A stretch of 64,000 nucleotides of DNA, taken from the IMG/VR virus record IMGVR_UViG_2844359394_000002. One strand, given 5' to 3'. This DNA is from an uncultured virus (IMG/VR IMGVR_UViG_2844359394_000002). Its lineage: Duplodnaviria > Heunggongvirae > Uroviricota > Caudoviricetes. The notes under the pieces are model-generated. The model was not told where the DNA came from. It made no database searches and saw only the letters and a list, made by a program, of their open reading frames with translations. Position numbers and translations under genes: made by a program. Positions 1,502-23,556 of this stretch are shown one piece after another (the stretch's first letter is position 1; every line of letters starts with the position of its first letter).

Positions 1502-3307
1502 TTAACATTCCGGTTTATAGAAACATGGCAGAAGAGCCTTCTTGTCGCAGTCCTTACCATGAAGAATACATTCAAACAAGTGTTTCAGGTAATTCTGAGG
1601 GTCTATGCCGTTCAACTTACAGCTTTCTATCAGAGAGAAGGTGAATGCAGAGTTTTCTGCCGCATCCTCACTGCCAACGTTCATACAGTTCTTGAGCAGC
1701 AGCTTTACAGGTTTCATCCTTTGCTCACAGAGGTTGTTCGAGATTTCTGCTGAACCGTCCTTGAGGATATTTCTCAAGGATTTCCACTGGTTTATCGTAT
1801 AGTTCACGGCCTTTCTCATCAGTTCGTTAGCCATAATCTTCGCATCCTGCATCATAATGACCACCTTATGATGGATACGTTCAAGAATCGGTCCTGTTAG
1901 CTTAAGCCTTCTTTCCTTAATCTGCTCACCGCTGAGTTTCATCATACGGAACAGGTCTTCATTTCTGAACATCTCACCGATAGGATCTATTATGTCCATC
2001 GCTGTTCTGTCTGAAGGCAGGGCATCAACCCACAACCTTCTACAATGCGTCCAGCATCCTATATGAAGCACCTTTGAGTCGTCTCCGTCAAACATCCTGT
2101 AAACCGTATATCCGTCAGTGGATATGGTTCCCATAAAATATTCCAGGAATGATTTTGCCGCATCGGACGACCTGCTGCCGTTATTATAGTGATAATAGAC
2201 CATCTTAATATGCTTGGCAAAGAAAGCCCATAAGTACTTTCTCCTGTAAGCCTTACCTTCCTTTGTTTCCACTCCAACAAGCTCAGTAGTCTCATCAACC
2301 ATAAGGTAATTAGCTCTCTGTACAAACTCCTTGAAGACATCTTCCATGAACTCCCTTAGTTTGGCGATTCCGTTATGGATATAGCTGTTCAGCGTGGTAT
2401 TGCTTATGTGGATACCCTCTCTTGCAAGCAGTCTTATCTGTCTGTTCTCAGGCATGCTGAAGTCATATTTCAGACAAAGCAGACGGGCAAGCAGTTCAGG
2501 AGAGAAGATACCTCCAAGGTTTTTCAGCGGATGTTCCATGGTGCTTGTGAAAGTGCCGTCCGCAAGCTTTACCCTTGCCACCTTGTAAACATGCTCCACG
2601 TTATAAGCCCTTACATGTTCTATGACCCTGTATTCCCACACATCAGGCATACCGTTGCGGTTCATAAACCGTCCCCCTTCTGGAAGCGTGTAATACTCGT
2701 CCACTTCATGTACTACCACCTTGTCAACTTTCAATTTTGTTTTCCCGGCACGTGGTGCGGTTTCCTTTCTCCTTGAAGGTTTGCTGTTCTGGGCAGGTAT
2801 GTTGCCGGAAGAGGTATTGCTGCCGGTTTCGTTATCATCGGTCTTATTATTATCATCCTTCCTGTCAGAACCGTCATACTCGGATTGTTCCAGAGCGGAC
2901 TTGTCGAGATTACGGTTGTTCAACAGCCTTCTTTGCTCGGAAGTACGGCCGAAACGGTGTTTCCTGCTGTCCTCAAGCTGAAGTCTGAGATTGGAGATCT
3001 CGTTTGCCAGCATCCTGTTCACCTCATCCTTTGCTTCAAGCTGCTTTCTCATAAGTTCCATTTCTTTCCTGTAATGTTCAACCGTGGTTGACTGCTTTTC
3101 GATGGTATCTTTGAGATCATTGATGGTATCTATCAGATTTTTAGAGTTCTCCCTGTTGGATTCTTCAATAGACTCAAGCCTCGCAATCAATTCTTTATTC
3201 TGTTTGCGAAGACCTGCCTTTTCCTCATTCGCCAGACCCAGCTGGCAGCAAAGTAACTCGTATGCTCTTTCATCAATCATGATATAAAGGTACGAAAAAT
3301 CAGGCAC
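1502..3307 (-). CDS. tnpC: IS66 transposase TnpC (DDE)
   Basis: N-terminal coiled coil, RFGRTSEQ, VDETT, TDGY, CWTHCRR, ISNNLCEQ, SLIESCKLNGIDP motifs. Confidence 0.93.
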   Translation of the reverse strand: MPDFSYLYIMIDERAYELLCCQLGLANEEKAGLRKQNKELIARLESIEESNRENSKNLIDTINDLKDTIEKQSTTVEHYRKEMELMRKQLEAKDEVNRMLANEISNLRLQLEDSRKHRFGRTSEQRRLLNNRNLDKSALEQSEYDGSDRKDDNNKTDDNETGSNTSSGNIPAQNSKPSRRKETAPRAGKTKLKVDKVVVHEVDEYYTLPEGGRFMNRNGMPDVWEYRVIEHVRAYNVEHVYKVARVKLADGTFTSTMEHPLKNLGGIFSPELLARLLCLKYDFSMPENRQIRLLAREGIHISNTTLNSYIHNGIAKLREFMEDVFKEFVQRANYLMVDETTELVGVETKEGKAYRRKYLWAFFAKHIKMVYYHYNNGSRSSDAAKSFLEYFMGTISTDGYTVYRMFDGDDSKVLHIGCWTHCRRLWVDALPSDRTAMDIIDPIGEMFRNEDLFRMMKLSGEQIKERRLKLTGPILERIHHKVVIMMQDAKIMANELMRKAVNYTINQWKSLRNILKDGSAEISNNLCEQRMKPVKLLLKNCMNVGSEDAAENSAFTFSLIESCKLNGIDPQNYLKHLFECILHGKDCDKKALLPCFYKPEC

Positions 3308-4578: not shown

Positions 4579-5042
4579 AGATTCATTTTTTCAGCTAGAG
4601 CAGAGAGCCCTATCAGTAGTTCAGTTATATTTTTGGCTTTTCCGACAACATCATCAACTTTTGCTGCTGTATCAGGGCTTAACTCCTTTTCTAATCGTTC
4701 TAGCTGCATTTGAAATGTATCAAAACTTAATATATATAAGTCTCTTTCAACAGTGAATCCCCCTTTTTCTGCAAAATTGAATATTTCAAAATTCAACGTA
4801 AGATATTCAATACCATATCCTTTATAGTCAATAAATCTCCTATTTTTGAACTCCTCTAAAACTATTTCATATTGTTCTTTACTGATCCTAAGGTCTGGTA
4901 TATCTTTATAATTTAGTTTAGCTGTTCTTTTCCCGTTTGCTACAACCAAAATATAATTTAATACTTTATCCTTTTCTTCAGCCGTTATAACTAAAGGATA
5001 TTCTCTTTCATCTTTGGGTGGTGCAGTTCTAATTTGGCACAT
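4575..5042 (-). CDS. Hypothetical protein in the repressor operon
   Basis: 155-aa ORF tightly packed downstream of the repressor and the secreted protein. Confidence 0.7.
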   Translation of the reverse strand: MCQIRTAPPKDEREYPLVITAEEKDKVLNYILVVANGKRTAKLNYKDIPDLRISKEQYEIVLEEFKNRRFIDYKGYGIEYLTLNFEIFNFAEKGGFTVERDLYILSFDTFQMQLERLEKELSPDTAAKVDDVVGKAKNITELLIGLSALAEKMNL

Positions 5043-5049
5043 ATAATAA

Positions 5050-5628
5050 TTAAATTATTTTTCTCAATACCTCTTTTTGTGAATCGATGTTGAATTTTGT
5101 ATCATTTACTTTGGCAGCCTCTTCTTCAGATATATTCATGTATTTTATAGCTTCATTTAGTTTACCGGAACTTATTGCCCAATATGCAAGATTTCTATAT
5201 ACATATTGTTTTTTAGTGTAAAATTTGCCGGAATCTACATCTTGTTTAGATATCTTGTATTCTTTATTCGGGTCTGTTGCTTCCCTGAACATTTCAACAC
5301 ACCAAAGGCTATTTTCCTTATTCAAATACATTACTACTATCATCTTTTTGTCAATATATTGTCCTGCTTTGTTTTTTATTTTACAGTTAATTATTGCTTT
5401 ATATCCTTTAATATTTAATGTATCTGTATCAAATAATATACCTGTTGGCTCTTCATAATTTAGTAAATCATACATATTTCCTAGATTAAAAGAATATTTA
5501 GAAATAATTTCTTTAGATTCTTCAAATTCAAAAGTCTTACATGCATCTAAGAATTTAATCAAATCACTTTTTTGTCCCCATGTTATAATAGGAGTAAAAA
5601 GCATTAGTATTAACAGTATCTTTTTCAT
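5050..5628 (-). CDS. Exported protein with signal peptide, lysogeny-expressed candidate
   Basis: MKKILLILMLFTPIITWGQ signal peptide; directly downstream of the repressor. Confidence 0.7.
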   Translation of the reverse strand: MKKILLILMLFTPIITWGQKSDLIKFLDACKTFEFEESKEIISKYSFNLGNMYDLLNYEEPTGILFDTDTLNIKGYKAIINCKIKNKAGQYIDKKMIVVMYLNKENSLWCVEMFREATDPNKEYKISKQDVDSGKFYTKKQYVYRNLAYWAISSGKLNEAIKYMNISEEEAAKVNDTKFNIDSQKEVLRKII

Positions 5629-5644
5629 TCGTTAATGTGTTTAT

Positions 5645-6040
5645 TTATCCTATATTACGTTCATTCTTCAACATAGCTAATTCGCCTTTCAGTTTTTGGT
5701 TCTCTTCAGTGAATAGTTGAATTGTTTTCATCTGCTCATTTATAGTCCCCTGAAGGGTTGCTATTGTATCAACTAAACGTTCCATGCGTTCAATATTTGG
5801 ATCAGGTTTGATATCTGAAATCAGCATTGGACCTTTATTGCGTAGTAACCAATCTGCTGAAATATCCGTAAATGCGTTTAATGTGAGCCTAATTACTTTA
5901 GAGGAAGGTTCTGTGTTTTTTTGAAACATAGAACCAATCACCGATTGGGTTACCCCAATTTTAATGGAAAACTGCCTGTCTGACAGCTTATAATAAGAGA
6001 TAATCTCTCTAATTTTTTCGTTTACGCTTGTTTCAGCCAT
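5645..6040 (-). CDS. Phage CI-like repressor (XRE HTH) with C-terminal coiled coil
   Basis: LSDRQFSIKIGVTQSVIG...ISADWLL HTH; divergent from the early right operon. Confidence 0.85.
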   Translation of the reverse strand: MAETSVNEKIREIISYYKLSDRQFSIKIGVTQSVIGSMFQKNTEPSSKVIRLTLNAFTDISADWLLRNKGPMLISDIKPDPNIERMERLVDTIATLQGTINEQMKTIQLFTEENQKLKGELAMLKNERNIG

Positions 6041-6060
6041 ATCTATATTAATAGTTAATT

Positions 6061-6124
6061 AACGTAAATGCGATTATTTATCAAGTTTTATGTTTTGTAA
6101 TTAACGTAAATACGTTTATATTTG
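6061..6124 (+). promoter_or_regulatory. Lysis-lysogeny switch: rightward promoter with two operators
   Basis: -33 TTTG 6094-6097, 19-bp spacer, -7 TATATTTG 6117-6124; operator AACGTA-AA-TACGTT 6103-6116 lies in the spacer; second copy AACGTA-AA-TGCGAT 6061-6074. Confidence 0.8.
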
Positions 6125-6193
6125 CATCATAAATCAATCAATCATACAAACATACAAAAAATGATTGATAAAACCAATTAAAAAATAACGATT

Positions 6194-6487
6194 ATGAGCT
6201 ACAATTTATCACAAATAATGAAGTCTGCACACCGCAATTACAAGAAGGGTGGAAAAACATTTTCAGAGTGTTTAAAATCTGCATGGAGCTTTGCAAAACT
6301 CCAAGAAAGTTTCTCACCGGAAGCAGTGAAATCAAGAACTGATAAATTTTTAGCTGAAAGACATGAAGCTATGAGCAAGACTGCCAAAGCTACACCTAGC
6401 AAGGAATATAATAACCTTAATATTCCCGCTTCCGCTTACTACAACCCAAATAGTACTCATTACGGTGCACATTACGTCGGAGATTAA
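6194..6487 (+). CDS. Early phage hypothetical protein
   Basis: YNLSQIMKSAH...FSECLKSAW motif common in small phage early proteins. Confidence 0.75.
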   Translation: MSYNLSQIMKSAHRNYKKGGKTFSECLKSAWSFAKLQESFSPEAVKSRTDKFLAERHEAMSKTAKATPSKEYNNLNIPASAYYNPNSTHYGAHYVGD

Positions 6488-6502
6488 TCAAATTATACAA
6501 CA

Positions 6503-6739
6503 ATGGATAAAAGAACCGAACTAGAAATACAGCGAGACAAATATGAAGCTGTGATTGAAGAACGAGACGCGTTGATCAGCTCTTTGAGAGGTGAAAATGA
6601 AAAACTCAAACGAGATTTAGAATCAGAACGTGGATTTTATAGAGAGAAAGTTTCCCAATGTGATGATTTGAAGAAATTTATTGAATCGCAACGAAACTTA
6701 ATGGACATAGTTTTGAAGAACAACCAAAGTATTCTCTAA
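6503..6739 (+). CDS. Coiled-coil hypothetical protein
   Basis: 78-aa ORF with heptad character. Confidence 0.65.
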   Translation: MDKRTELEIQRDKYEAVIEERDALISSLRGENEKLKRDLESERGFYREKVSQCDDLKKFIESQRNLMDIVLKNNQSIL

Positions 6740-6833
6740 CCCTCACTAAAGTCAAACCAAACCGCCGGTTATCCGGTACCCAGTCCGGTCTTTGAGCCTG
6801 CCCTTGAAGGGAGACTGGGAACAACAGAGAAGA

Positions 6834-6849
6834 GTTCTTTGACATATTG
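6834..6849 (+). promoter_or_regulatory. boxA-like antitermination site
   Basis: GTTCTTTGACATATTG resembles rrn/nut boxA; preceded by a CCCAGTC...GACTGGG stem (6779-6819). Confidence 0.55.
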
Positions 6850-7013
6850 GTAAAATGGTGTTTTGGAAGCCGACACGTGCTGAAAGGGATTACTGACGTA
6901 GGCGGGCTTCTCAACGATATAATGCTGTGGTTAATGGTCAAGCCGTATCGTTGTAAAACTAAATCAGTTAGACGTTTGTCGGCAAATCGAGGTATTTGCT
7001 TTATGTATATAAA

Positions 7014-7147
7014 GGTGATGTAGCTCAGGCAGGTTAGAGCGCTGTGTGTGGTGGATGGTTGAGAGTTCGAGTCTCTCAAGAAATACTCTTAGCTTAACGG
7101 AAGAGCACCACAAGTAGAGGTCGGCGGTTCGAATCCGCTCATCGCTT
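7014..7147 (+). ncRNA. tRNA-like element 1: double-elbow RNA, no anticodon
   Basis: Acceptor GGTGATG/CATCGCT; two D arms (7023-7040, 7092-7106); two TTCGA T arms (7061-7077, 7123-7139); central helix 7042-7051/7108-7117. Confidence 0.75.
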
Positions 7148-7173
7148 CAATGTTTAATTTAAAATTAGATTGT

Positions 7174-7380
7174 ATGGAAAAGGATATTCAGAGACGTAAC
7201 GTAATTGATGTATTACGGAGTATGGATGTTGGTGCAATAGAAGTATTTCCTATCGTTCAGAAACCGTCTGTAACTAATACATTGAATGCTCGGCTTTATA
7301 AAGAAAAAGCTGAAGGAATGGCTTGGAAAACAAAGTCAGATGTAAAAAATATGCAGTTTATAGTAACCAGAATTGCATAA
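7174..7380 (+). CDS. Small phage protein, probable DNA-binding regulator
   Basis: 68-aa ORF in the early operon. Confidence 0.65.
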   Translation: MEKDIQRRNVIDVLRSMDVGAIEVFPIVQKPSVTNTLNARLYKEKAEGMAWKTKSDVKNMQFIVTRIA

Positions 7381-7397
7381 CTACCTTGCTTGTTGAG

Positions 7398-7655
7398 ATG
7401 ATCAGAGGTGAAATGGCTGAAATATTGCTAGATAATATTCTCCGTCTGTTTTCTACAGAAACGTTTGGAAAAGATAAGTCTGCGTATTATGTGGGTGGGG
7501 AAAAGAAATTGATGAATCTTATAGAAGCGGGTAAGATTGAAAGTGATAAGCCCACTAATGTCCAAAACGGCAAGTGGCATTGTAATGCTGCTCAAGTATT
7601 ACTTCATTGCCGATGTGCGGGAAGGAAAGTTAAATCTAAAAAACGGAAGAAATGA
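7398..7655 (+). CDS. Small winged-helix/excisionase-like protein
   Basis: SAYYVGGEKKLMNLIEAGKI...NGKWHC pattern resembles Xis/MerR-type wHTH. Confidence 0.55.
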   Translation: MIRGEMAEILLDNILRLFSTETFGKDKSAYYVGGEKKLMNLIEAGKIESDKPTNVQNGKWHCNAAQVLLHCRCAGRKVKSKKRKK

Positions 7656-7843
7656 AAAAGATTAAAGTGATACAGTATGCCATGATGTTCATTGCCTTAT
7701 GGACAACACTGTATCTTATAGATAGCATTGAAGTTAGCAAGAAAGAATTTATTGCTGCTTTTGTATTGGTGACTGTCGTATCAGTGAATTATATCTGTTT
7801 TCGATACTACGAAGATAGGAAACAAAATAAGGATAGCCTGTGA
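7652..7843 (+). CDS. Small two-TM membrane protein
   Basis: Two hydrophobic segments in 63 aa; overlaps the upstream stop. Confidence 0.65.
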   Translation: MKKIKVIQYAMMFIALWTTLYLIDSIEVSKKEFIAAFVLVTVVSVNYICFRYYEDRKQNKDSL

Positions 7844-7905
7844 AGGTCTGCATTGCTTAATTTTAGTATTTGTCATGTTTATTTAGCCCGGTTCGCCGGG
7901 CATCT

Positions 7906-7976
7906 GCCGGGATAGCCCAGTTGGTTAGAGCGCATGTTTCTACATGAGGTCAGCGGTTCGAATCCGTTTCCCGGCT
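7906..7976 (+). ncRNA. tRNA-like element 2 (4-nt loop in place of the anticodon loop)
   Basis: GCCGGGA/TCCCGGC acceptor; D arm; CATGT-TTCT-ACATG; AGGTC variable loop; AGCGG-TTCGAAT-CCGTT. Confidence 0.8.
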
Positions 7977-8068
7977 CAACTCAATCAGAGTTAAGTAACC
8001 CGTGAGGGTGAAAATATATTTGCATTATATATACAATCAATGTAGCCGGAAGCGTCTGGCTACGACCT

Positions 8069-8166
8069 GAAGGAATGGCGGAATTGGTAAACGCAAGTAT
8101 GCAGATAGATTGAAGAAAGTCATACATAGGTAATCTATCATCCCGGTTCGAGTCCGGGTTCCTTCA
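8069..8166 (+). ncRNA. tRNA-like element 3 (Leu-type D arm; anticodon and variable region replaced)
   Basis: GAAGGAA/TTCCTTC acceptor; GGCGGAATTGGTAAACGC; CCCGG-TTCGAGT-CCGGG; crossed stems inside. Confidence 0.75.
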
Positions 8167-8393
8167 CAGAGAATTTTTCTTTTTATGTTTAACTAATGTT
8201 GCCAGCGAAAAGGACGCTGTAGGGTTAAAGCCCCTGTTATTTGAGTTTTAATTGTTCTATACTATTCCGGTGTGCTTTGAACGGCTATCCGGAAGCAAGA
8301 AGCTCGTGAGAGTGCTATTTAATAGTTAATGTCGTGTTTTATTTTGTGTTTGTGTTCTAGGTGAATGGTTCGTGAGAATAGTTCACTTAAAAC

Positions 8394-8460
8394 GGATGGC
8401 TGGTGTAATTGGCAGCATACGCAGATATGCGTGATGTGGGTTCGATCCCCACGCCATTCA
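8394..8460 (+). ncRNA. tRNA-like element 4 (4-nt loop in place of the anticodon loop)
   Basis: GGATGGC/GCCATTC acceptor; ACGCA-GATA-TGCGT; GTGGG-TTCGATC-CCCAC. Confidence 0.75.
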
Positions 8461-8561
8461 CCCTTCTGATCCTAATTAAATTATAGTAGTTCATGAGTTT
8501 TGTTTTGTGTTTGTGATTGGGGTGTATGGTCTGTGAAGATAGTGCACCTTTTTAATTAATC

Positions 8562-8644
8562 GGGCGGATATGTATATCGTTGGTTGAAACTGCGGTGAGG
8601 TGCACCAATATTCCGTGAGACCGGTTCGACTCCGGTTCCGTCCA
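8562..8644 (+). ncRNA. tRNA-like element 5 (acceptor and T arm only, G3.U70 pair)
   Basis: GGGCGGA/TCCGTCC-A acceptor; ACCGG-TTCGACT-CCGGT; no canonical D or anticodon arm. Confidence 0.65.
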
Positions 8645-8739
8645 CTAGCATTTACATTATGTATAAATCAGGGAGCCGTACACCCTTCAAAGCGTAGCCG
8701 TTCCATAAGGTACATTGGATTATTCATTTTCTTATTTTT

Positions 8740-8770
8740 CTGCCTGTACAATATCGTACAGGCAGTTTTT
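8740..8770 (+). terminator. Intrinsic terminator closing the ncRNA region
   Basis: CTGCCTGTAC-AATATC-GTACAGGCAG followed by TTTTT. Confidence 0.8.
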
Positions 8771-8778
8771 ACTACCTG

Positions 8779-8880
8779 AAAATGGCGTTAAAATGGCGAA
8801 GTTTCTGTTTGCTAAACTTGTCAATAACGATTACCTTTACTGATGTAATGAACTAAAAGTCAAACCATTAAATTAGAATT
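8779..8880 (+). promoter_or_regulatory. Repeated phage promoter element, copy 1
   Basis: AAAATGGCGTTAAAATGGCG, then TTTG-N20-TACCTTTA, then AAAGTCAAACCA leader. Confidence 0.8.
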
Positions 8881-9663
8881 ATGACAGCGAGAAAAAACAC
8901 TGTATCAACGGTTCAGAATGAAGAGAAGAAGAAAAATTCTATCAGACCGCTTCTAGCTTCTGAAATTGAATGTAGGGTTGGTACTATGAAACCGGACGGT
9001 TCGGGCTGCTCCTTGCTATTATACAAGGATGCTCGAGTAGACATGAGAATACTTGATGAAGTGTTCGGAGAAATGAACTGGAAACGGCACCATGATGTCG
9101 TTAATGGGAATCTATTCTGTACGTTGTCCATTTGGGATAATGAAAAGAAGGAATGGGTGAGTAAACAGGATGTTGGGACAGAATCTAGCACAGAAAAAGA
9201 GAAAGGGCAGGCTTCGGACGCCTTTAAACGTGCAGGATTTAACTGGGGAATTGGGCGTGAACTTTATACGGGTCCTTTCATTTGGATTCCACTTGAGAAA
9301 AATGAAATATATCAGAGCAAAACAGGTTCTCCTGCTCTATACACCAAATTCAGTGTAAAAGAGATTGGTTATAACGAGCAAAAGGAGATTATTTTACTTG
9401 TTATTGTGGACAATAAAAACCGCGTTCGTTTTGCTTATGGTAATACAAAGGAAAAAGTATATGCTCCCAATGTTTCTGCTTCAAACGCTTCGGGCAAAGT
9501 ATATACTGGTGTAGACCTAGATCGTGCAATTAAACAAATGACTGGTGTTAAAAGCCGCGAAGAGCTTGAGAGAGTTTGGGCTGAACATCCCGAACTTCAC
9601 AATAATAAGGAGTTCAGAAACATAACTATTGACATGCAGAAAACGTATCCTCCTAGAAATTGA
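8881..9663 (+). CDS. Sak/Rad52-like single-strand annealing protein
   Basis: LLLYKDARVDMRILDEVFG..NW and EKGQASDAFKRAGFNWGIGRELY motifs. Confidence 0.85.
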   Translation: MTARKNTVSTVQNEEKKKNSIRPLLASEIECRVGTMKPDGSGCSLLLYKDARVDMRILDEVFGEMNWKRHHDVVNGNLFCTLSIWDNEKKEWVSKQDVGTESSTEKEKGQASDAFKRAGFNWGIGRELYTGPFIWIPLEKNEIYQSKTGSPALYTKFSVKEIGYNEQKEIILLVIVDNKNRVRFAYGNTKEKVYAPNVSASNASGKVYTGVDLDRAIKQMTGVKSREELERVWAEHPELHNNKEFRNITIDMQKTYPPRN

Positions 9664-9668
9664 TAATA

Positions 9669-10583
9669 ATGATAGAATTAGTGAAATCCAGTGTGGTTTT
9701 CAATGAGGAAAACCACACTTATATGCTCGGTGAAAAACAGTTGCAAGGTATAACCGGTATGATTAGCCGGCAGTTGTTCCCTGACAAATATAAAGATGTC
9801 CCCGATTTTGTATTGAAGAGAGCTGCAGAGAAGGGTAGCCTTATTCATGCTCAATGCCAGTTTGCTGATGTAACAGGCTTACCTCCTGAAAGTATTGAAG
9901 CAGAGAATTATATCAGAATGAGGGTAAATGCCGGATATAAGGCGCTTGCCAATGAATATACCGTTTCTGATAACGAATACTTTGCATCGAATATAGATTG
10001 TGTTTGGGAGAAAGCCGGTAGAATTAGTCTTGTTGACATCAAAACTACCCTTCATCTTGATAAGGAGTATTTAAGTTGGCAGTTGTCAATCTATGCTTAT
10101 TTCTTTGAACTTCAAAATCCATTACTCAAAGTTGATAAATTGTTTAGCACTTGGTTGCGTGGTAATAAACATGAATTTGTTGAAATTAGCCGTAAGTCTG
10201 ATAAAGAAGTCAAGAAGTTAATGGAATGCGAGAAGAAGGGTGAGCAATATCTATCCAATCTTCCCGTTCCTGCCCCTGATGATGACAAGTTACTTATTCC
10301 AATGCAGCTTGTAAATACTATAATCGGGATTGAGGAAGAACTTGCAGATCTAACCAAGATTCAGAAAGATTATAAGGCAAAATTGAAAACTGCTATGCGT
10401 GAGAATGGTGTCAAGTCATGGGATGCCGGAAGATTGCGAGTTAGTTATACACCCGCTTCTACGAGTGACAATTTTGATACTAAAAAGTTTCAGGCTGACT
10501 ATCCGGAATTATATTCTAAGTATATCAAAACAGTTCCTAAAGCTGATAGTATCCGTGTAACAATAAGGGAGGATAAATCATGA
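9669..10583 (+). CDS. PD-(D/E)XK exonuclease, recombination partner of Sak
   Basis: FNEENHTY, GSLIH, ASNIDCV...LVDIKT, QLSIYAY motifs. Confidence 0.8.
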   Translation: MIELVKSSVVFNEENHTYMLGEKQLQGITGMISRQLFPDKYKDVPDFVLKRAAEKGSLIHAQCQFADVTGLPPESIEAENYIRMRVNAGYKALANEYTVSDNEYFASNIDCVWEKAGRISLVDIKTTLHLDKEYLSWQLSIYAYFFELQNPLLKVDKLFSTWLRGNKHEFVEISRKSDKEVKKLMECEKKGEQYLSNLPVPAPDDDKLLIPMQLVNTIIGIEEELADLTKIQKDYKAKLKTAMRENGVKSWDAGRLRVSYTPASTSDNFDTKKFQADYPELYSKYIKTVPKADSIRVTIREDKS

Positions 10584-11029
10584 GTTTAAACAAATTGATG
10601 CTTATCGGGCATGTTGGCAAAGACCCCGATATTAGAATTTTGGAAGCTGGTTCTAAAGTGGCCACTTTCTCCTTTGCCACCACTGAAAAAGGTTATACCC
10701 TTGCCAATGGAACACAGGTTCCTGAAAGAACTGAATGGCATAATATTGTTGTTTGGCGTGGTCTTGCCGATGTTGTTGAGAAGTATGTCCATAAGGGAGA
10801 CAAGTTGTATCTGGAAGGAAAGATAAGAACTCGGAGTTATGATGATAGCAGAGGAATTAAACGGTATATTACAGAACTTTTTGTTGATAATATGGAGATG
10901 CTTTCTGTTAAGCCTCAACAAGCGCCACCACCGCCACCTCTTCCGGAACACACCAATAATCAGACTCGAAGTGCGGTGAATGAGTGCCCGCCACCGCCAC
11001 CACCGACCAAGGACGATTTGCCATTCTGA
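10580..11029 (+). CDS. ssb: Single-stranded DNA-binding protein
   Basis: LNKLMLIGHVGKDP...TEWHNIVVW...KGDKLYLEGKIRTRSY; C-terminal DDLPF. Confidence 0.95.
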   Translation: MSLNKLMLIGHVGKDPDIRILEAGSKVATFSFATTEKGYTLANGTQVPERTEWHNIVVWRGLADVVEKYVHKGDKLYLEGKIRTRSYDDSRGIKRYITELFVDNMEMLSVKPQQAPPPPPLPEHTNNQTRSAVNECPPPPPPTKDDLPF

Positions 11030-15459: not shown

Positions 15460-15637
15460 GCATATCAAACTTGAAGATATTCCTGAAGTGAAAAGAAGAA
15501 TACGGGAGCGTTTTGGTATTCCTAATCACACAACTGTTAATGGTGAAACGGATTGTTATATCCGTGAGGAAGATATGGAATTGCTTCGGGAAACGGAAAA
15601 ACGTGGCTTCATTCAAATACGTAATAAGCCCGCATGA
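15416..15637 (+). CDS. Hypothetical protein
   Basis: 73-aa ORF. Confidence 0.65.
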   Translation: MANKKQKVTIYWNTRHIKLEDIPEVKRRIRERFGIPNHTTVNGETDCYIREEDMELLRETEKRGFIQIRNKPA

Positions 15638-15738
15638 AAATGGCGTTAAAATGGCGAAGTTTCTGTTTGCATAACTTGTCATTTTACGATAACTTTACTG
15701 ATGTAATGAATTAAAAGTCAAACCAATATAATTAAATT
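15637..15738 (+). promoter_or_regulatory. Repeated phage promoter element, copy 2
   Basis: AAAATGGCGTTAAAATGGCG, then TTTG-N20-TAACTTTA, then AAAGTCAAACCA. Confidence 0.8.
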
Positions 15739-17457
15739 ATGGAAGTACAAAACATTAGAATTGACCTTATCAGTCCTTCTCCTTTGAATCCGAGAAAGAC
15801 TTTTGATGAAGCAGCTCTTGAAGAGCTTGCAAGCAACATTGAAAAGCAAGGTTTATTGCAACCTATCACTGTCAGAGTTGCTAAATCCGAGGAGATGACT
15901 AACCTAGAAACCGGAGATGTTACCCCATTACCTTACACATACGAAATTGTTTGCGGTGAGCGTCGTTTCCGGGCTGTGTCACTTTTGAAAGCAAAGGAAG
16001 ATGAAGCGAATGTTGCAAAAATCAAAGCCCATCGAAAAAAGTCGGAAAAATTTCAGACAATATCCTGCATTGTCAGAGAAATGACAGATGATGAGGCTTT
16101 TGAAGCGATGATTACCGAGAATCTTCAAAGAAAAGATGTTGATCCCATCGAAGAAGCTTTTGCCTTTGCGCAGTTGGCTGAAAAAGGACGAACTTTGGAA
16201 GATATCGCTCTTAAAATAGGAAAGTCTACCCGGTTTGTTTTTGACCGTATTAAATTGAATTCTCTTATTCCTGAACTAAAAGAGCGGGTAAGAAATGGAG
16301 ATATACCATTGTCCGGTGCTATGATTCTTTCTAAATTGGATGAAGATACTCAAAAAGAGTTTCATGAGGAGGAGGAAGAACAATGTACTACTGCTATGAT
16401 TCGAGAATTTGTGAGTAATTCTTTCATGGAGCTTGGTAACGCACCTTGGATTAAAGATGATTCCGATAATTGGGAAAATACCGATATTAAATCATGTTCT
16501 CAATGTGAGAATAATACGTGTAATCATGGTTGTTTGTTCTATGAAATGAATAGTAAGGATGCTAGATGTATCAATGCTGCTTGCTATGAGAAAAAACAGA
16601 TTGCTTATGTGACGCGGAAAATTCAACTAGAATATGAACATCTTGTTAAAGTTGGCGAACCTCTTTCATTTGGAAAAACAGTAATTATCGCTAGACGTCC
16701 CGATACATATTGGGGAGAAGATAGAAAGGTTTTCTATGAAAAAACTTTGGAAGCTGTTAAACAACTTGGATTTGAAATAGTTGATCCTGATGAAATCTTT
16801 AGATGTAAGTGCTGGTATTCAGAAGATGATGAACGCACTTTGAAAATGCTTGAAGATGGAGAAGTTTATCGTTGTCTTTCATTTTTTGGACATTATTCTC
16901 CCGAATTTAACGTTAGTTTCTATTATGTTAGAAAAGAAACGGCTTCCTCTACTTCCGCCGTTGCCGATCTAAAAGAGATAGAAAGGGAAAAAATAAACGC
17001 CCAATTAAAAAGAGCGAAGGATATAGTCAAGGAGAAGTCTGCTGAAGAAATGCGCAAGTGGGCGCAAGAGAAAACATATTATCAGAGAACAAAAGAATTC
17101 TCTGAAAATGAACAACTTGTTTTTGATGTGCTGGTTCTTAGCGGTTGTAGCAGTACTTATCTTGAAAAACTGAATTTAAAAAAATGGAATGGTGAGAGTG
17201 ATTTTGTAAATTATGTCAAGAACAACCAAGCTGACCGACACCAATGGTATAGAGCCTTTATTGCTGAATGCTTATCATCGAATAATGTGAATTTCTACTC
17301 CTATTTGCAAAAGTGTCAGAAAATCCTTTTTGCAGAACAATATCCGGATGATTTCAAAGCGCTCTCTAAGAAACTTGCGGATTCATATGATAAGAAAGAA
17401 AAGAAGCTCAAAGAAAGACTGAAAGAACTAAATAACGATAACACAGAGGAAGCCTAG
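15739..17457 (+). CDS. ParB/RepB/Spo0J-family protein
   Basis: PLNPRKTFD...LASNIEKQGLLQPITVR, CGERRFRA, ENLQRKDVDPIEEA. Confidence 0.9.
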   Translation: MEVQNIRIDLISPSPLNPRKTFDEAALEELASNIEKQGLLQPITVRVAKSEEMTNLETGDVTPLPYTYEIVCGERRFRAVSLLKAKEDEANVAKIKAHRKKSEKFQTISCIVREMTDDEAFEAMITENLQRKDVDPIEEAFAFAQLAEKGRTLEDIALKIGKSTRFVFDRIKLNSLIPELKERVRNGDIPLSGAMILSKLDEDTQKEFHEEEEEQCTTAMIREFVSNSFMELGNAPWIKDDSDNWENTDIKSCSQCENNTCNHGCLFYEMNSKDARCINAACYEKKQIAYVTRKIQLEYEHLVKVGEPLSFGKTVIIARRPDTYWGEDRKVFYEKTLEAVKQLGFEIVDPDEIFRCKCWYSEDDERTLKMLEDGEVYRCLSFFGHYSPEFNVSFYYVRKETASSTSAVADLKEIEREKINAQLKRAKDIVKEKSAEEMRKWAQEKTYYQRTKEFSENEQLVFDVLVLSGCSSTYLEKLNLKKWNGESDFVNYVKNNQADRHQWYRAFIAECLSSNNVNFYSYLQKCQKILFAEQYPDDFKALSKKLADSYDKKEKKLKERLKELNNDNTEEA

Positions 17458-20532: not shown

Positions 20533-20635
20533 AAAAAAGGCGTTTAAATGGCGTCCATTCTGTTTGTCATATTCGCCTTTTTTAGCTAACTTTACTGACG
20601 TAATAAACTAAAAGTCAAACCATTAAATTAGAATT
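20533..20635 (+). promoter_or_regulatory. Repeated phage promoter element, copy 3 (divergent)
   Basis: AAAAAAGGCGTTTAAATGGCG, then TTTG-N20-TAACTTTA, then AAAGTCAAACCATTAAATTAGAATT. Confidence 0.75.
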
Positions 20636-21211
20636 ATGATTATAAGAACAGTTTGCGGATATGATTTCTTTGAGGTGAGTTCTGCAATGCAGAAAGCCAT
20701 TAGGCGAGCCGACACCGGGGTAGCCGGCTTTTTTGCATTGGAACTTTGGGCGAGTGGGTACCGCGACTATGTGTGGAAGCGTCTGTTTACCATTAGTGCT
20801 GAAGATTGCTATGGAATCATTACTAAAGAGATAGAAGCATTGTGGCAGGGGCATGAGCTGGTAAACAAGACTGCTACTGAACCCAAAGGGAGGATATTTG
20901 TCAGTAAAGCTGTTATTCTCCTTTGTGAATGTAGAAAGAATCGTGATGCGGATCATTTGCAAAACTTCATCTATGATAGAAAGGATATTGATATAGAAAA
21001 GTGGATAAATGATGTCAGGCGTTACCCTATTCCTATTCCAGATTACACTTTCGATGTACATACACGAAAGGGTAAAAAACATGGGAGAACCAAAGAAGAA
21101 TTCTTTCAGGAAGAATACAAGGCGTTACAACCTCGTGTTCCTGGTTTATTCGATGATTTGGTTCAACCCAGTCAACCAAAGTTATTTAATGATGAAACCA
21201 CGGCTAAGTAG
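20636..21211 (+). CDS. RarA/MgsA C-terminal-like domain protein
   Basis: SAMQKAIRRAD...WKRLFTISAEDCYG; no ATPase domain. Confidence 0.7.
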   Translation: MIIRTVCGYDFFEVSSAMQKAIRRADTGVAGFFALELWASGYRDYVWKRLFTISAEDCYGIITKEIEALWQGHELVNKTATEPKGRIFVSKAVILLCECRKNRDADHLQNFIYDRKDIDIEKWINDVRRYPIPIPDYTFDVHTRKGKKHGRTKEEFFQEEYKALQPRVPGLFDDLVQPSQPKLFNDETTAK

Positions 21212-22745: not shown

Positions 22746-23468
22746 ATGAAATATTATGCTTCAGTTAGCTTTGGAAAGGATTCCTTGGCAATGCTTTTCA
22801 TGCTAATAGATAAAGGATATCAGTTGGATGAAGTCGTTTTCTATGATACAGGTATGGAATTTCAGGCAATCTATAACACTCGTGATGCTGTTCTTCCAAT
22901 TCTTAAAAAACTTGGCATTAAATATACAGAACTGCATCCGGAGCAACCTTTTCTTTGGACAATGTTTGAAAGGCCGGTTAAGAAAAGAGGGACCAATATT
23001 ATCCATAAAAAAGGATATAGTTGGTGTGGGGGAACATGCCGGTGGGGAACGAGTGAAAAACTTCGTGCATTGAAAGCTCACACAAAAGACGGAATTGATT
23101 ATGTCGGTATTGCTGCCGATGAGACCCATCGTTTTGAAAAGGAAAAACGACCAAATCGGGTTTTACCACTTCGTGATTGGGGCATTACTGAAGCAGATGC
23201 ACTCCAGTATTGTTACACAAAAGGCTTTGTTTGGCATGAGGATGGAGTAAGGCTATATGAGCTACTTGATCGTGTGAGTTGCTGGTGTTGTGGAAATAAG
23301 AACTTGAAGGAGTTGAAGAATATGTATTTGTACCTTCCATGGTATTGGAAAAAGCTGAAAGAACTTCAGTTAAATACCGATAGGCCCTATCGTCGTAATA
23401 GTGGAGAAACCATTTTTGATTTAGAGGAAAGATTTAGACGTGAATTGTTGAAGAAAAAAACTGATTAA
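22746..23468 (+). CDS. PAPS reductase-family (PP-loop) protein
   Basis: SVSFGKDS, YDTGMEF, GIAADE, RVSCWCC. Confidence 0.85.
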   Translation: MKYYASVSFGKDSLAMLFMLIDKGYQLDEVVFYDTGMEFQAIYNTRDAVLPILKKLGIKYTELHPEQPFLWTMFERPVKKRGTNIIHKKGYSWCGGTCRWGTSEKLRALKAHTKDGIDYVGIAADETHRFEKEKRPNRVLPLRDWGITEADALQYCYTKGFVWHEDGVRLYELLDRVSCWCCGNKNLKELKNMYLYLPWYWKKLKELQLNTDRPYRRNSGETIFDLEERFRRELLKKKTD

Positions 23469-23556
23469 AATGGCGTTAAAATGGCGAAGTTTCTGTTTGC
23501 TAAACTTGTCAATAACGATTACCTTTATAGACGTAAAGCATTAAAAGTCAATCAAC
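23467..23556 (+). promoter_or_regulatory. Repeated phage promoter element, copy 4
   Basis: AAAATGGCGTTAAAATGGCG, then TTTG-N20-TACCTTTA; near-identical to copy 1 over ~60 bp. Confidence 0.8.

Follow-up and report, generated by a model that had tools for sequence, protein, structure and literature searches.

Two spacers of a tRNA-like array in a Bacteroides prophage carry the core of a host small RNA

Positions 7845–8770 of a 64,000-nucleotide (nt) stretch of DNA from an uncultured tailed virus (IMG/VR record IMGVR_UViG_2844359394_000002; the whole stretch is called the window below) raise the question of what is made from the spacers between transfer RNA (tRNA)-like elements that lack an anticodon. 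A first-pass annotation, made from the letters alone, had read these spacers as hairpin-capped antisense small RNAs (sRNAs) directed against start-codon regions. By comparison with host and viral sequences, we find that two of the spacers carry the RbpB-contacted core of an abundant host sRNA, together with a co-varying hairpin, and that this module is tied to a tRNA-like unit across many phages. Because of the block homology, the co-varying hairpin, and the linked tRNA-like unit, we regard the two spacers as phage-borne mimics of the host sRNA module. Our overall reading, to which we give about even odds (a probability near 0.5), is that the array is the noncoding 3′ part of an early transcript and that the two mimics are released at the tRNA-like units to engage RbpB or the targets of the host sRNA.

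Two Spacers Carry a Block of Abundant Host sRNAs

The U-rich tract before the fourth tRNA-like unit, tract C (8326–8359, + strand; quoted earlier as 8331–8354), is a copy of the U/G-rich block of the Bacteroides thetaiotaomicron sRNAs BTnc028, BTnc101, and BTnc102. A DNA search of 201 host-family genomes returned a match of ∼40 nt to 8320–8360, and positions 8330–8356 are identical over all 27 nt in seven of eight retrieved host loci and over 24 nt in the remaining one. When up to one mismatch is allowed, 68 of the 121 host-family genomes scanned, from 25 of the 35 genera, contain a 24-mer of the block, most of them in a single copy; the reversed control gave 0. Chromosomal copies read ...UUGCAUAGUAGUUUUGUCGUGUUUUAUUUUGUGUUUGUGUUGUR and are preceded by UUGCAUAGUAG, which shares CAUAGUA with the seed of the host sRNA FopS. 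In these copies the block runs into a hairpin whose stem sequence is genus-specific yet paired, with a mostly GNRA-type loop (a few differ), and then into a U-run that is interrupted in a few. Tract D (8487–8519, + strand; quoted part 8489–8515), before the fifth unit, is a diverged second copy: its 20-mer at 8495–8514 has two mismatches (18/20 identical) and CAUGAG in place of GUCGUG. The conserved part of the host block reads ...UGUCGUGUUUUAUUUUGUGUUUGUGUU..., and our covariance model of the module (R1) finds only these two copies in the window, at 8326–8395 (80.8 bits) and 8487–8556 (75.1 bits).

In B. thetaiotaomicron the block sits in BTnc028 (transcription start site 768697, terminator 768818–857) and in the tandem BTnc101/BTnc102; these RNAs have noncanonical PM2 promoters and coverage of 66,000–258,000, and BTnc028 was confirmed by Northern blot (Ryan et al. 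2020, PMC7366714). RbpB is a global RNA recognition motif (RRM) protein that counteracts FopS repression of susC-like mRNAs; its crosslinking immunoprecipitation sequencing (CLIP-seq) peak on BTnc028 spans 768765–768845 (log2 fold change 5.3, adjusted P 7.9e-14), a second and weaker peak lies on the 5′ part of the same RNA, and BTnc101/102 carry peaks at 2410598–2410668 and 2410839–2410908 (PMC11697453). Mapping the block by hand under the peaks of two of the three RNAs (BTnc028 and BTnc102) showed that the RbpB peak covers the block plus the first half of the terminator.

The phage copies resemble the host RNAs in sharing the same U/G block, in having a GNRA-capped hairpin directly after it, and in leaving the block single-stranded in local folds. 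They differ in nearly everything around it. The host RNAs are ∼170 nt long, with their own PM2 promoter, an 80- to 95-nt 5′ domain, a true terminator, and no tRNA-like unit. In contrast, the phage copies have another 5′ domain and another conserved hairpin, lack a promoter of their own, and are followed after 4–13 nt by a tRNA-like unit. Their GUGA-loop hairpins differ in sequence from the host terminators; copy C has no U-run after its hairpin (UUAAAAC), and copy D has UUUUU followed by AAUUAAUC.

Two other assignments of the block were rejected. The FopS-10 primer seed (GTGTTTTTCATAGTATTAG) is a different sequence with no match in the window at ≤3 mismatches, and as BTnc049 or BTnc201 the host copies score 26–30 bits against cut-offs of 81.9 and 105, with the true BTnc049 of the host-type genome G001 lying elsewhere. 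In several genera, a galE-like epimerase gene stands immediately upstream of the host sRNA gene, which is tandemly duplicated in Bacteroides, as in B. thetaiotaomicron (in G001, contig C1, 2371501–2371797 and 1310449–1310472). Within the conserved block, TAGTTTTG fits the −7 promoter consensus; the mapped transcription start sites lie upstream.

Upstream of tract C lies a conserved 5′ domain of 159 nt (8167–8325, + strand) with small hairpins including UUCCGG...CCGGAA and AGCUC-GUGA-GAGUGCU. Its fold is unremarkable (z +0.32), and its 3′ part recurs in three other viral loci (L052, L078, and L131) before other U-rich tracts, hairpins, and tRNA-like units. Two loci (L054 and L105) have an insertion of ∼180 nt in this domain, near window position ∼8300. 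Another, L072, has no unit 4 and none of the sequence between the blocks (window 8357–8516), and hairpin 4 and unit 5 come right after copy C; the deletion apparently arose by recombination between the two block copies.

A Distinct Hairpin and a tRNA-Like Unit Follow the Block in Many Phages

At least 101 viral contigs contain the exact 20-mer of the block and represent 49 distinct 160-nt variants; this and the following counts of variants and loci are among the matches listed. Most phage and host copies of the block read UGUCGUG. After the block, the phage loci have a hairpin of their own with the consensus GGUGYRYSGUYYGUGARRAUAGYRCACC, followed in most variants by UUUCUUAUU or UUUUUUAUU.

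We counted compensatory changes in 29 distinct module sequences. Pairing of the hairpin is kept in 99.7% of 316 cells, compared with 28.8–57.0% when the 3′ partners are slid, and 36 cells are changed on both sides vs. 13.1 ± 2.6 in shuffles (0/500 reach 36), an excess that the relatedness of the loci enlarges. The two-sided changes fall in 5 of 11 pairs, a count equalled by 154 of 500 shuffles; two inner pairs switch together from C-G/U-A to U-A/C-G in 11 of the 29 sequences.

The module is closely linked to a tRNA-like unit: of 83 distinct loci, 79 have a unit that begins 55–76 nt from the start of the block, or 82 when one acceptor mismatch is tolerated. Two of the 83 loci have hairpins of the host terminator type: L064, whose unit call may be spurious, and L069, which has no unit. 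The attached units range from 66 to 145 nt and comprise eight or more lengths and types. This order of block, hairpin, and unit fits release, or 3′-end formation, at the unit.

FopS genes are also found in viral contigs, in at least 109 loci (L237–L345) with 59 variants among the matches listed. Taken as a control for the unit finder and for the linkage, these complete and free-standing genes (TAnnTTTG box, exact 19-nt seed, terminator) have a tRNA-like unit 40–140 nt downstream in 1 of the 59 variants. In one locus, L332, the FopS seed starts 4 nt after the apparent 3′ end of a tRNA or tRNA-like gene. The RbpB study notes a FopS sequence in one Caudovirales phage (PMC11697453), and the number of viral contigs found here is far above that.

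Architecture of the Array

An acceptor/T-arm finder recovers five tRNA-like units, all on the + strand, and four of them score above the gathering threshold of the Rfam tRNA family (RF00005). Unit 1 (7014–7147, 36.6 bits) has acceptor, D, and T arms and a 72-nt insert that replaces the anticodon loop. Unit 2 (7906–7976, 54.7 bits) is a full cloverleaf whose anticodon stem is closed by a loop of 4–5 nt, unit 3 (8069–8166, 40.8 bits) has a 39-nt insert in the anticodon arm, and the anticodon stem of unit 4 (8394–8460, 39.1 bits) is closed by a GAUA tetraloop. Unit 5 (8562–8643) has the acceptor and T arm only, is otherwise noncanonical, and matches Rfam tRNA-Sec weakly (17.1 bits, E 6.3). The units thus have a 4- to 5-nt loop, a tetraloop, or a 39- to 72-nt insert where a decoding tRNA has its 7-nt anticodon loop. 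ARAGORN calls one unit, unit 2, as “tRNA-???” with a 2-base “anticodon”, and host tRNAs resembling this unit were among the short matches in the search of the 201 host-family genomes. A blastn search of 6740–8880 against the GenBank phage collection returned three records with matches of 53–84 bases and no relative of the array; two of the matches lie under annotated tRNA-Thr genes and one in an unannotated record. The insert of unit 1 has its own T-arm, followed by a D-arm-like hairpin, and a weak match to YrlA (21.5 bits, E 0.24). It looks like a permuted tRNA-like or YrlA-like domain, a putative “tRNA within a tRNA scaffold.”

Stable hairpins precede units 2–5. Hairpin 1 (7886–7901, + strand, GCCCGG-UUCG-CCGGGC) lies 4 nt before unit 2 and hairpin 2 (8042–8063, + strand, GUAGCCGGA-AGCG-UCUGGCUAC) 5 nt before unit 3. 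Hairpin 3 (8360–8387, + strand), 4–7 nt before unit 4, is the phage-type module hairpin, with an outer stem, a C/A mismatch, a 4-base-pair (bp) inner stem, and a GUGA tetraloop; hairpin 4 (8520–8549, + strand), 12–13 nt before unit 5, is of the same type with a compensated inner stem (GUCU/AGAU) and is followed by UUUUUAAUUAAUC. The array closes with an intrinsic terminator on the + strand, whose G+C-rich stem of 10 bp, with six G-C pairs (8740–8765), is followed by a T-run (TTTTT) to 8770. The four hairpins, the four U-rich tracts, and the terminator of the first-pass annotation are therefore all present where it had placed them, and the spacing of 4–13 nt between the hairpins and elements 2–5 was confirmed.

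Hairpins of this kind are uncommon before host tRNAs. Closed hairpins (≥5 bp, ending ≤16 nt upstream) before units 2–5 have folding energies of −11.2, −12.9, −12.0, and −14.0 kcal/mol, and unit 1 has a weaker one (−7.1 kcal/mol) 13 nt upstream. Among 33 host tRNA genes used as a control, an upstream hairpin of −8 kcal/mol or lower was found in 3 and of −6 kcal/mol or lower in 10; the adjacency of hairpins to the units exceeds this control. A hairpin stands 4–16 nt before all units of the window and before the further phage units examined.

Local folds return every hairpin. Compared with 200 shuffles, fold z scores are −1.82 for 7845–7905 (11/200 as stable), −3.33 for 7978–8068 (0/200), −2.79 for 8326–8393 (3/200), −1.42 for 8461–8561 (16/200), and −3.17 for 8644–8775 (1/200). 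Tracts C and E are unpaired in these folds and tract A largely so; in the spacer of tract D, the minimum free energy structure pairs part of the tract, and the centroid leaves it open. A fold of the whole 937-nt precursor gave noisy long-range pairings, with unpaired probabilities of 0.52 (A), 0.69 (C), 0.24 (D), and 0.73 (E), and was set aside. The general plan of the array is a structured 5′ part, a single-stranded U-rich tract, a hairpin, a few bases, and a tRNA-like unit.

The two remaining U-rich tracts behave differently from tract C. We aligned the array with 16 close relatives and with L075, a relative of ∼80% identity, and expressed variation as mean pairwise difference. No differences occur in tract C among the 16 close arrays (0.000), and L075 differs there by 0.086. 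In contrast, tract A (7865–7885, + strand; quoted part 7868–7882, containing CAT) is not conserved, at 0.089 among close arrays and 0.57 vs. L075, with 6- to 7-nt deletions in L085, L104, and L075. Tract E (8717–8739, + strand; quoted part 8722–8739, containing CAT), which stands before the terminator, differs by 0.025 among close arrays but has diverged in L075 (0.46), and carries an insertion in L081. The hairpins hold where these tracts do not: hairpin 1 differs by 0.022 among close arrays and 0.000 vs. L075, hairpin 2 by 0.011 and 0.091, and hairpins 1 and 2 and the terminator together stay within 0.00–0.09. The A/T-rich stretch before hairpin 2 varies among relatives, and so does the insert of unit 3 (0.161, and 0.707 vs. 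L075), compared with 0.022–0.056 for the scaffold.

In a scan of the window, tract A and the other spacers do not match the module model, and an Rfam search of 6500–9200 at E values up to 10 assigned no spacer to a family, returning chance-level matches only (e.g., snR36, E 5.7). At ≤3 mismatches in G001, tract A matches only itself (1 match vs. 1 control match), with no near-antisense site, and tract E has 6 matches vs. 8 control matches. The spacers before units 2 and 3 and the trailer have the same tract-and-hairpin shape as the mimics, with conservation in the hairpins only; they are more likely structural 3′-end caps than sequence-specific regulators. As far as alignments reveal it, sequence constraint appears restricted to the BTnc028-type tract.

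The Array in a Predicted Early Transcript

The array lies near the left end of a siphovirus-like prophage, with nearly all genes on the + strand, that extends from ∼6000 to ∼62000 of the window. A Bacteroides-type −7 promoter box, TATATTTG (6117–6124, + strand), was found in a scan for the TAnnTTTG motif, with a −33 TTTG 19 nt upstream; we dropped a sigma-70 promoter scan in favor of this one, as sigma-70 promoters are irrelevant for Bacteroides. The box is divergent from a repressor-like gene (5645–6040, − strand) with matches to transcriptional regulators and repressors in PHROGs and is likely the start of the early rightward transcript that carries the array. Downstream of it come small open reading frames (ORFs) of unassigned function, unit 1, three small ORFs (the last ending at 7843), the array, the terminator, and recombination genes. 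From 6194 on, the phage genes around the array all read in the + direction. The array has a single terminator, and neither block-carrying spacer contains a Bacteroides-type −7 box. A second −7-type box with the same letters at 8015–8022, in the spacer before unit 3, lacks a −33 TTTG and overlaps a stretch that is variable among close relatives; it is a possible internal promoter.

Public RNA sequences touch this region. Eighteen runs in eight studies hold the array, 13 of them recorded as RNA; these were read as assembled Logan contigs, from which starts, ends, strands, and levels of the RNAs are not readable. Contigs of four RNA libraries span 5000–11000 and cover the array and its neighbors, with breaks at a 107-nt repeat, as expected of a repeated sequence, and, in the low-depth run X11, also near units 1, 2, and 4. 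RNA-library contigs of two studies begin at 6130 (run X9) and 6144 (run X1), just past the predicted promoter, and in X1 the contig 6144–8806 has a depth of 24.8, vs. 8.7–15.7 for downstream genes. The contig starts and the X1 depth give a weak hint that the array belongs to a transcript beginning near 6130.

Pairing with Start Codons

The specific claim of the first-pass annotation was that the CAT or CGT in the U-rich tracts pairs with start codons, as the reverse complements of the tracts read as an A-rich leader plus ATG. This is true of the letters, but it is generic to any U-rich sequence containing CAT. As a conserved property it fails: most copies of the block read UGUCGUG, and tracts A and E carry indels and substitutions among close relatives.

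We computed duplex energies (RNAduplex) for each tract against 664 start regions (604 predicted host starts from 800 kilobases of G001 and 60 starts of the window), using as controls 40–45 shuffled seeds per tract and mid-gene windows, and as statistic the mean of the 10 best energies. The upstream regions of the 604 host starts are 41% A. Against shuffles, z was −0.21 for C, −1.49 for D, −1.34 for A, and −0.86 for E, and start regions equalled mid-gene controls, so that the enrichment of start-region complementarity expected for antisense RNAs was not found; the proven FopS seed is equally flat in this test (z −1.30), and the test thus cannot decide on start-codon pairing. Nor did any tract have near-perfect antisense sites in G001 beyond control counts.

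Of the initial idea, the core intuition of sRNAs carried between tRNA-like units is partly borne out. The U-rich-tract-and-hairpin build of the spacers is confirmed, and tracts C and D are homologous to an RbpB-bound host tract. The anti-start-codon feature is not conserved.

Proposed Mechanism and Alternative Explanations

We propose the following course for 7845–8770. An early rightward transcript would run from near 6117 to the terminator at 8740–8770, and within it tRNA-like units devoid of an anticodon would alternate with spacer RNAs that each close with a stable hairpin. The mimic spacers (∼8167–8393 and ∼8461–8561) would each present the single-stranded U/G-rich block followed by the phage-specific GNRA-capped hairpin. 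An acceptor/T-arm stack is what substrate recognition by RNase P needs. By analogy with tRNA precursors, the mimic spacers are probably cut out of the early polycistronic transcript at the units: RNase P would cut the 5′ end of each unit, and 3′ trimming of the preceding unit would free the spacer. A freed spacer would end in its hairpin with a 4- to 13-nt tail, the shape of a terminated sRNA, and with several RNAs coming from one early transcript, no separate promoter or terminator per RNA would be needed. The freed RNAs may then engage RbpB, as decoy or recruiter, and/or the mRNA targets of the host sRNA, and the outcome would be a rewiring of host posttranscriptional control early in infection. 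As RbpB counteracts FopS repression of susC-like mRNAs, a decoy might be expected to deepen that repression, which is speculation on our part.

Several observations weigh against this proposal. The blastn similarity between array and host is confined to ∼40 nt around the block, and neither the host PM2 promoter nor the 80- to 95-nt 5′ domain (UAUGYGAAUA..., with a AUGCCUCCCCGGCAU hairpin in Bacteroides) has a counterpart upstream in the window; because these two features are missing, we class the phage copies as derived modules and not as members of the BTnc028/101/102 family. Tracts A and E, two of the four tracts originally named, are unconserved and have no host counterpart in G001. The shuffle tests of covariation overstate its support since the loci are related, and the invariance of the 20-mer is partly built in because the viral loci were collected by exact match; copy D, with 2 of 20 positions changed, shows that the block can drift. 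The RNA contigs are of low depth, extend over array and flanks without distinction, and cannot reveal ends; RNase P cutting and discrete spacer RNAs are what we infer, as are RbpB binding by the phage copies and any regulatory effect. RbpB binding is documented for the host RNAs only, in another species, and we found no paper after the 2020 atlas (PMC7366714) that names BTnc028/101/102. The duplex test gave no signal of start-codon targeting, in a comparison without power. Lastly, the U-run after the hairpin in most phage variants means that the hairpin could be a leaky terminator and not a processed end.

That last point leads to one of the rival explanations, in which the hairpins and U-tails are leaky terminators or insulators that meter read-through and the U/G block is a functionless passenger captured with a host terminator region. 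The host block does stand directly before a true terminator, and UUUCUUAUU or UUUUUUAUU follows the hairpin in most phage variants, as UUUUU does in copy D. However, the phage hairpin is a structure distinct from the host terminator and kept by compensatory changes, copy C lacks the U-run, and the block stays intact across variants with differing units and upstream sequence, which would be unexpected under neutral hitchhiking; we consider this explanation improbable. A better case can be made for the units as the effectors, with tract and hairpin acting as a leader in cis that recruits RbpB or another factor, sets folding or processing, or protects the 5′ side and has no role in trans. The module is nearly always tied to a unit at a fixed distance, a hairpin precedes every unit seen, and the units are diverse, often with large inserts, as if they were cargo. 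Nevertheless, cutting by RNase P as on tRNA precursors would part the leader from its unit, so that a lasting role in cis is hard to see, and the host sRNAs carry the same block without any tRNA-like unit. We hold this version to be doubtful.

The original model in full, with all four tracts as antisense seeds that block translation at the A-rich leaders and AUGs of host or defence mRNAs, we judge unlikely. In its favor, the build matches that of FopS and GibS, in which a U-rich 5′ stretch and hairpin repress susC mRNAs beside the start codon (PMC11697453); start regions in Bacteroides are A-rich; tracts C and E are unpaired and A largely so; and the CAUAGUA in UUGCAUAGUAG before the host block recurs in the FopS seed. 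Against it, close relatives differ by indels in tracts A and E, neither of which has a host homolog; tract C and most copies of the block, phage or host, contain no CAT; duplex energies fall within shuffles and equal the mid-gene controls (as flat for the FopS seed); and G001 offers no near-perfect antisense site above control counts. That the CAT triplets are instead start codons of real minus-strand small ORFs, the alternative by which the first-pass annotation would have stood refuted, we reject with near certainty. Minus-strand ATGs exist at 7876, 8494, and 8727, but they open ORFs of just 31, 35, and 19 amino acids, none lies in tract C, the 35-residue ORF runs antisense through unit 4, tract A has indels in relatives, and the neighboring genes are all on the other strand.

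Relation to Known Systems

The host sRNAs FopS and GibS are RbpB ligands that act at the start-codon regions of susC-like mRNAs, and their build, a single-stranded U-rich stretch with a hairpin behind it, is that of the mimic spacers (Ruttiger et al. 2025, PMC11697453). FopS differs in that its seed is unlike the block and in that the viral FopS genes stand alone, nearly always without a unit behind them.

More distant parallels exist for units and spacers alike. The TMERs of murine gammaherpesvirus 68 link non-decoding tRNA-like units to hairpin regulatory RNAs that are separated by host tRNA-processing enzymes. They are eukaryotic RNAs made by RNA polymerase III, their hairpins come after the tRNA-like unit, and tRNase Z makes the cut; in contrast, the phage array has a bacterial host and places the sRNA module upstream of the unit, and its processing is a proposal. 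Functional RNAs also arise from transcribed spacers of tRNA precursors, such as 3′ETS-leuZ and the internal spacers of the Escherichia coli glyW-cysT-leuZ operon, and the 3′ end of MALAT1 is made by RNase P at the tRNA-like structure of mascRNA. In these cellular genes the tRNAs are genuine ones, or there is just one tRNA-like element, and none is an array of anticodon-less units with copies of another sRNA. Phages elsewhere make sRNA mimics or processed sRNAs: AgvB and AsxR of enterohemorrhagic E. coli prophages, pseudo-ToxI of phage TE, and DicF of Qin. Like the modules described here, these are phage look-alikes of host regulatory RNAs or sRNAs from early polycistronic transcripts, and they interfere with RNA-based control in the host; they differ in belonging to another phylum, in depending on Hfq or ToxN, and in having no tRNA-like punctuation.

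We found no description in the literature of a block-hairpin-tRNA-like arrangement in phages, and the consulted parts of the RbpB paper (PMC11697453) contain nothing like it. RbpB and its sRNA ligands are the first global posttranscriptional network described in Bacteroidota. At least 101 viral contigs copying the exact RbpB-contacted block mark this block as a functional interface worth attacking, and the phage copies give a direct handle on the role of the very abundant BTnc028/101/102. To our knowledge, Bacteroidota have neither Hfq nor ProQ. A wider possibility, which we offer tentatively, is that Bacteroides gut phages make wide use of anticodon-less units as processing punctuation to deliver sRNA mimics with the RbpB core from a single early transcript, which would titrate or redirect RbpB and reprogram outer-membrane and glycan-uptake genes. 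If so, a shutdown of receptors against superinfection is conceivable, and the array would represent two firsts: a natural tRNA-sRNA polycistron in a virus of bacteria, and an attack by a phage on the RNA network of an RRM protein. It would also be a natural example in bacteria of tRNA-guided small-RNA production, a strategy for which a herpesvirus and engineered guide-RNA arrays are the examples known to date.

Other Features of the Window

The prophage assignment rests on Pfam matches of window proteins (large terminase, portal, capsid, tail tape measure, SSB, helicase, NinG, and a ParB-like protein) and on PHROGs matches to an Erf-like annealing protein, a RecE-like exonuclease, and a NinB-like protein. 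The same DNA is present with 100% identity in the 6.47-Mb genome G001 and in a second viral record (G002). G001 has Bacteroides traits: 11 exact FopS seeds, a BTnc049 match above the Rfam cut-off, and three RRM_1 genes.

The repeat at which the RNA contigs break is ∼107 nt long and occurs four times in the phage with 78–93% identity (8777–8883, 15635–15741, 20534–20639, and 23467–23551). The copies at 8777–8883 and 15635–15741 end at the ATG of the next gene. The repeat contains the direct repeat AAAATGGCG...AAAATGGCG, then TTTG, ∼19 nt, and TAccTTTA, and resembles a regulated promoter of the phage, operator or activator site included.

Finally, a weak match to the module model lies on the minus strand at 1241–1314 (17.1 bits, E ∼0.05), adjoining an IS66 transposase gene (1502–3307, − strand). 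It comprises a U/G-rich stretch and, after it, a hairpin resembling a terminator with its U-run. The RbpB study mentions a family of sRNAs whose genes neighbor transposases and invertases (PMC11697453), and this element may be another small RNA beside a transposase.

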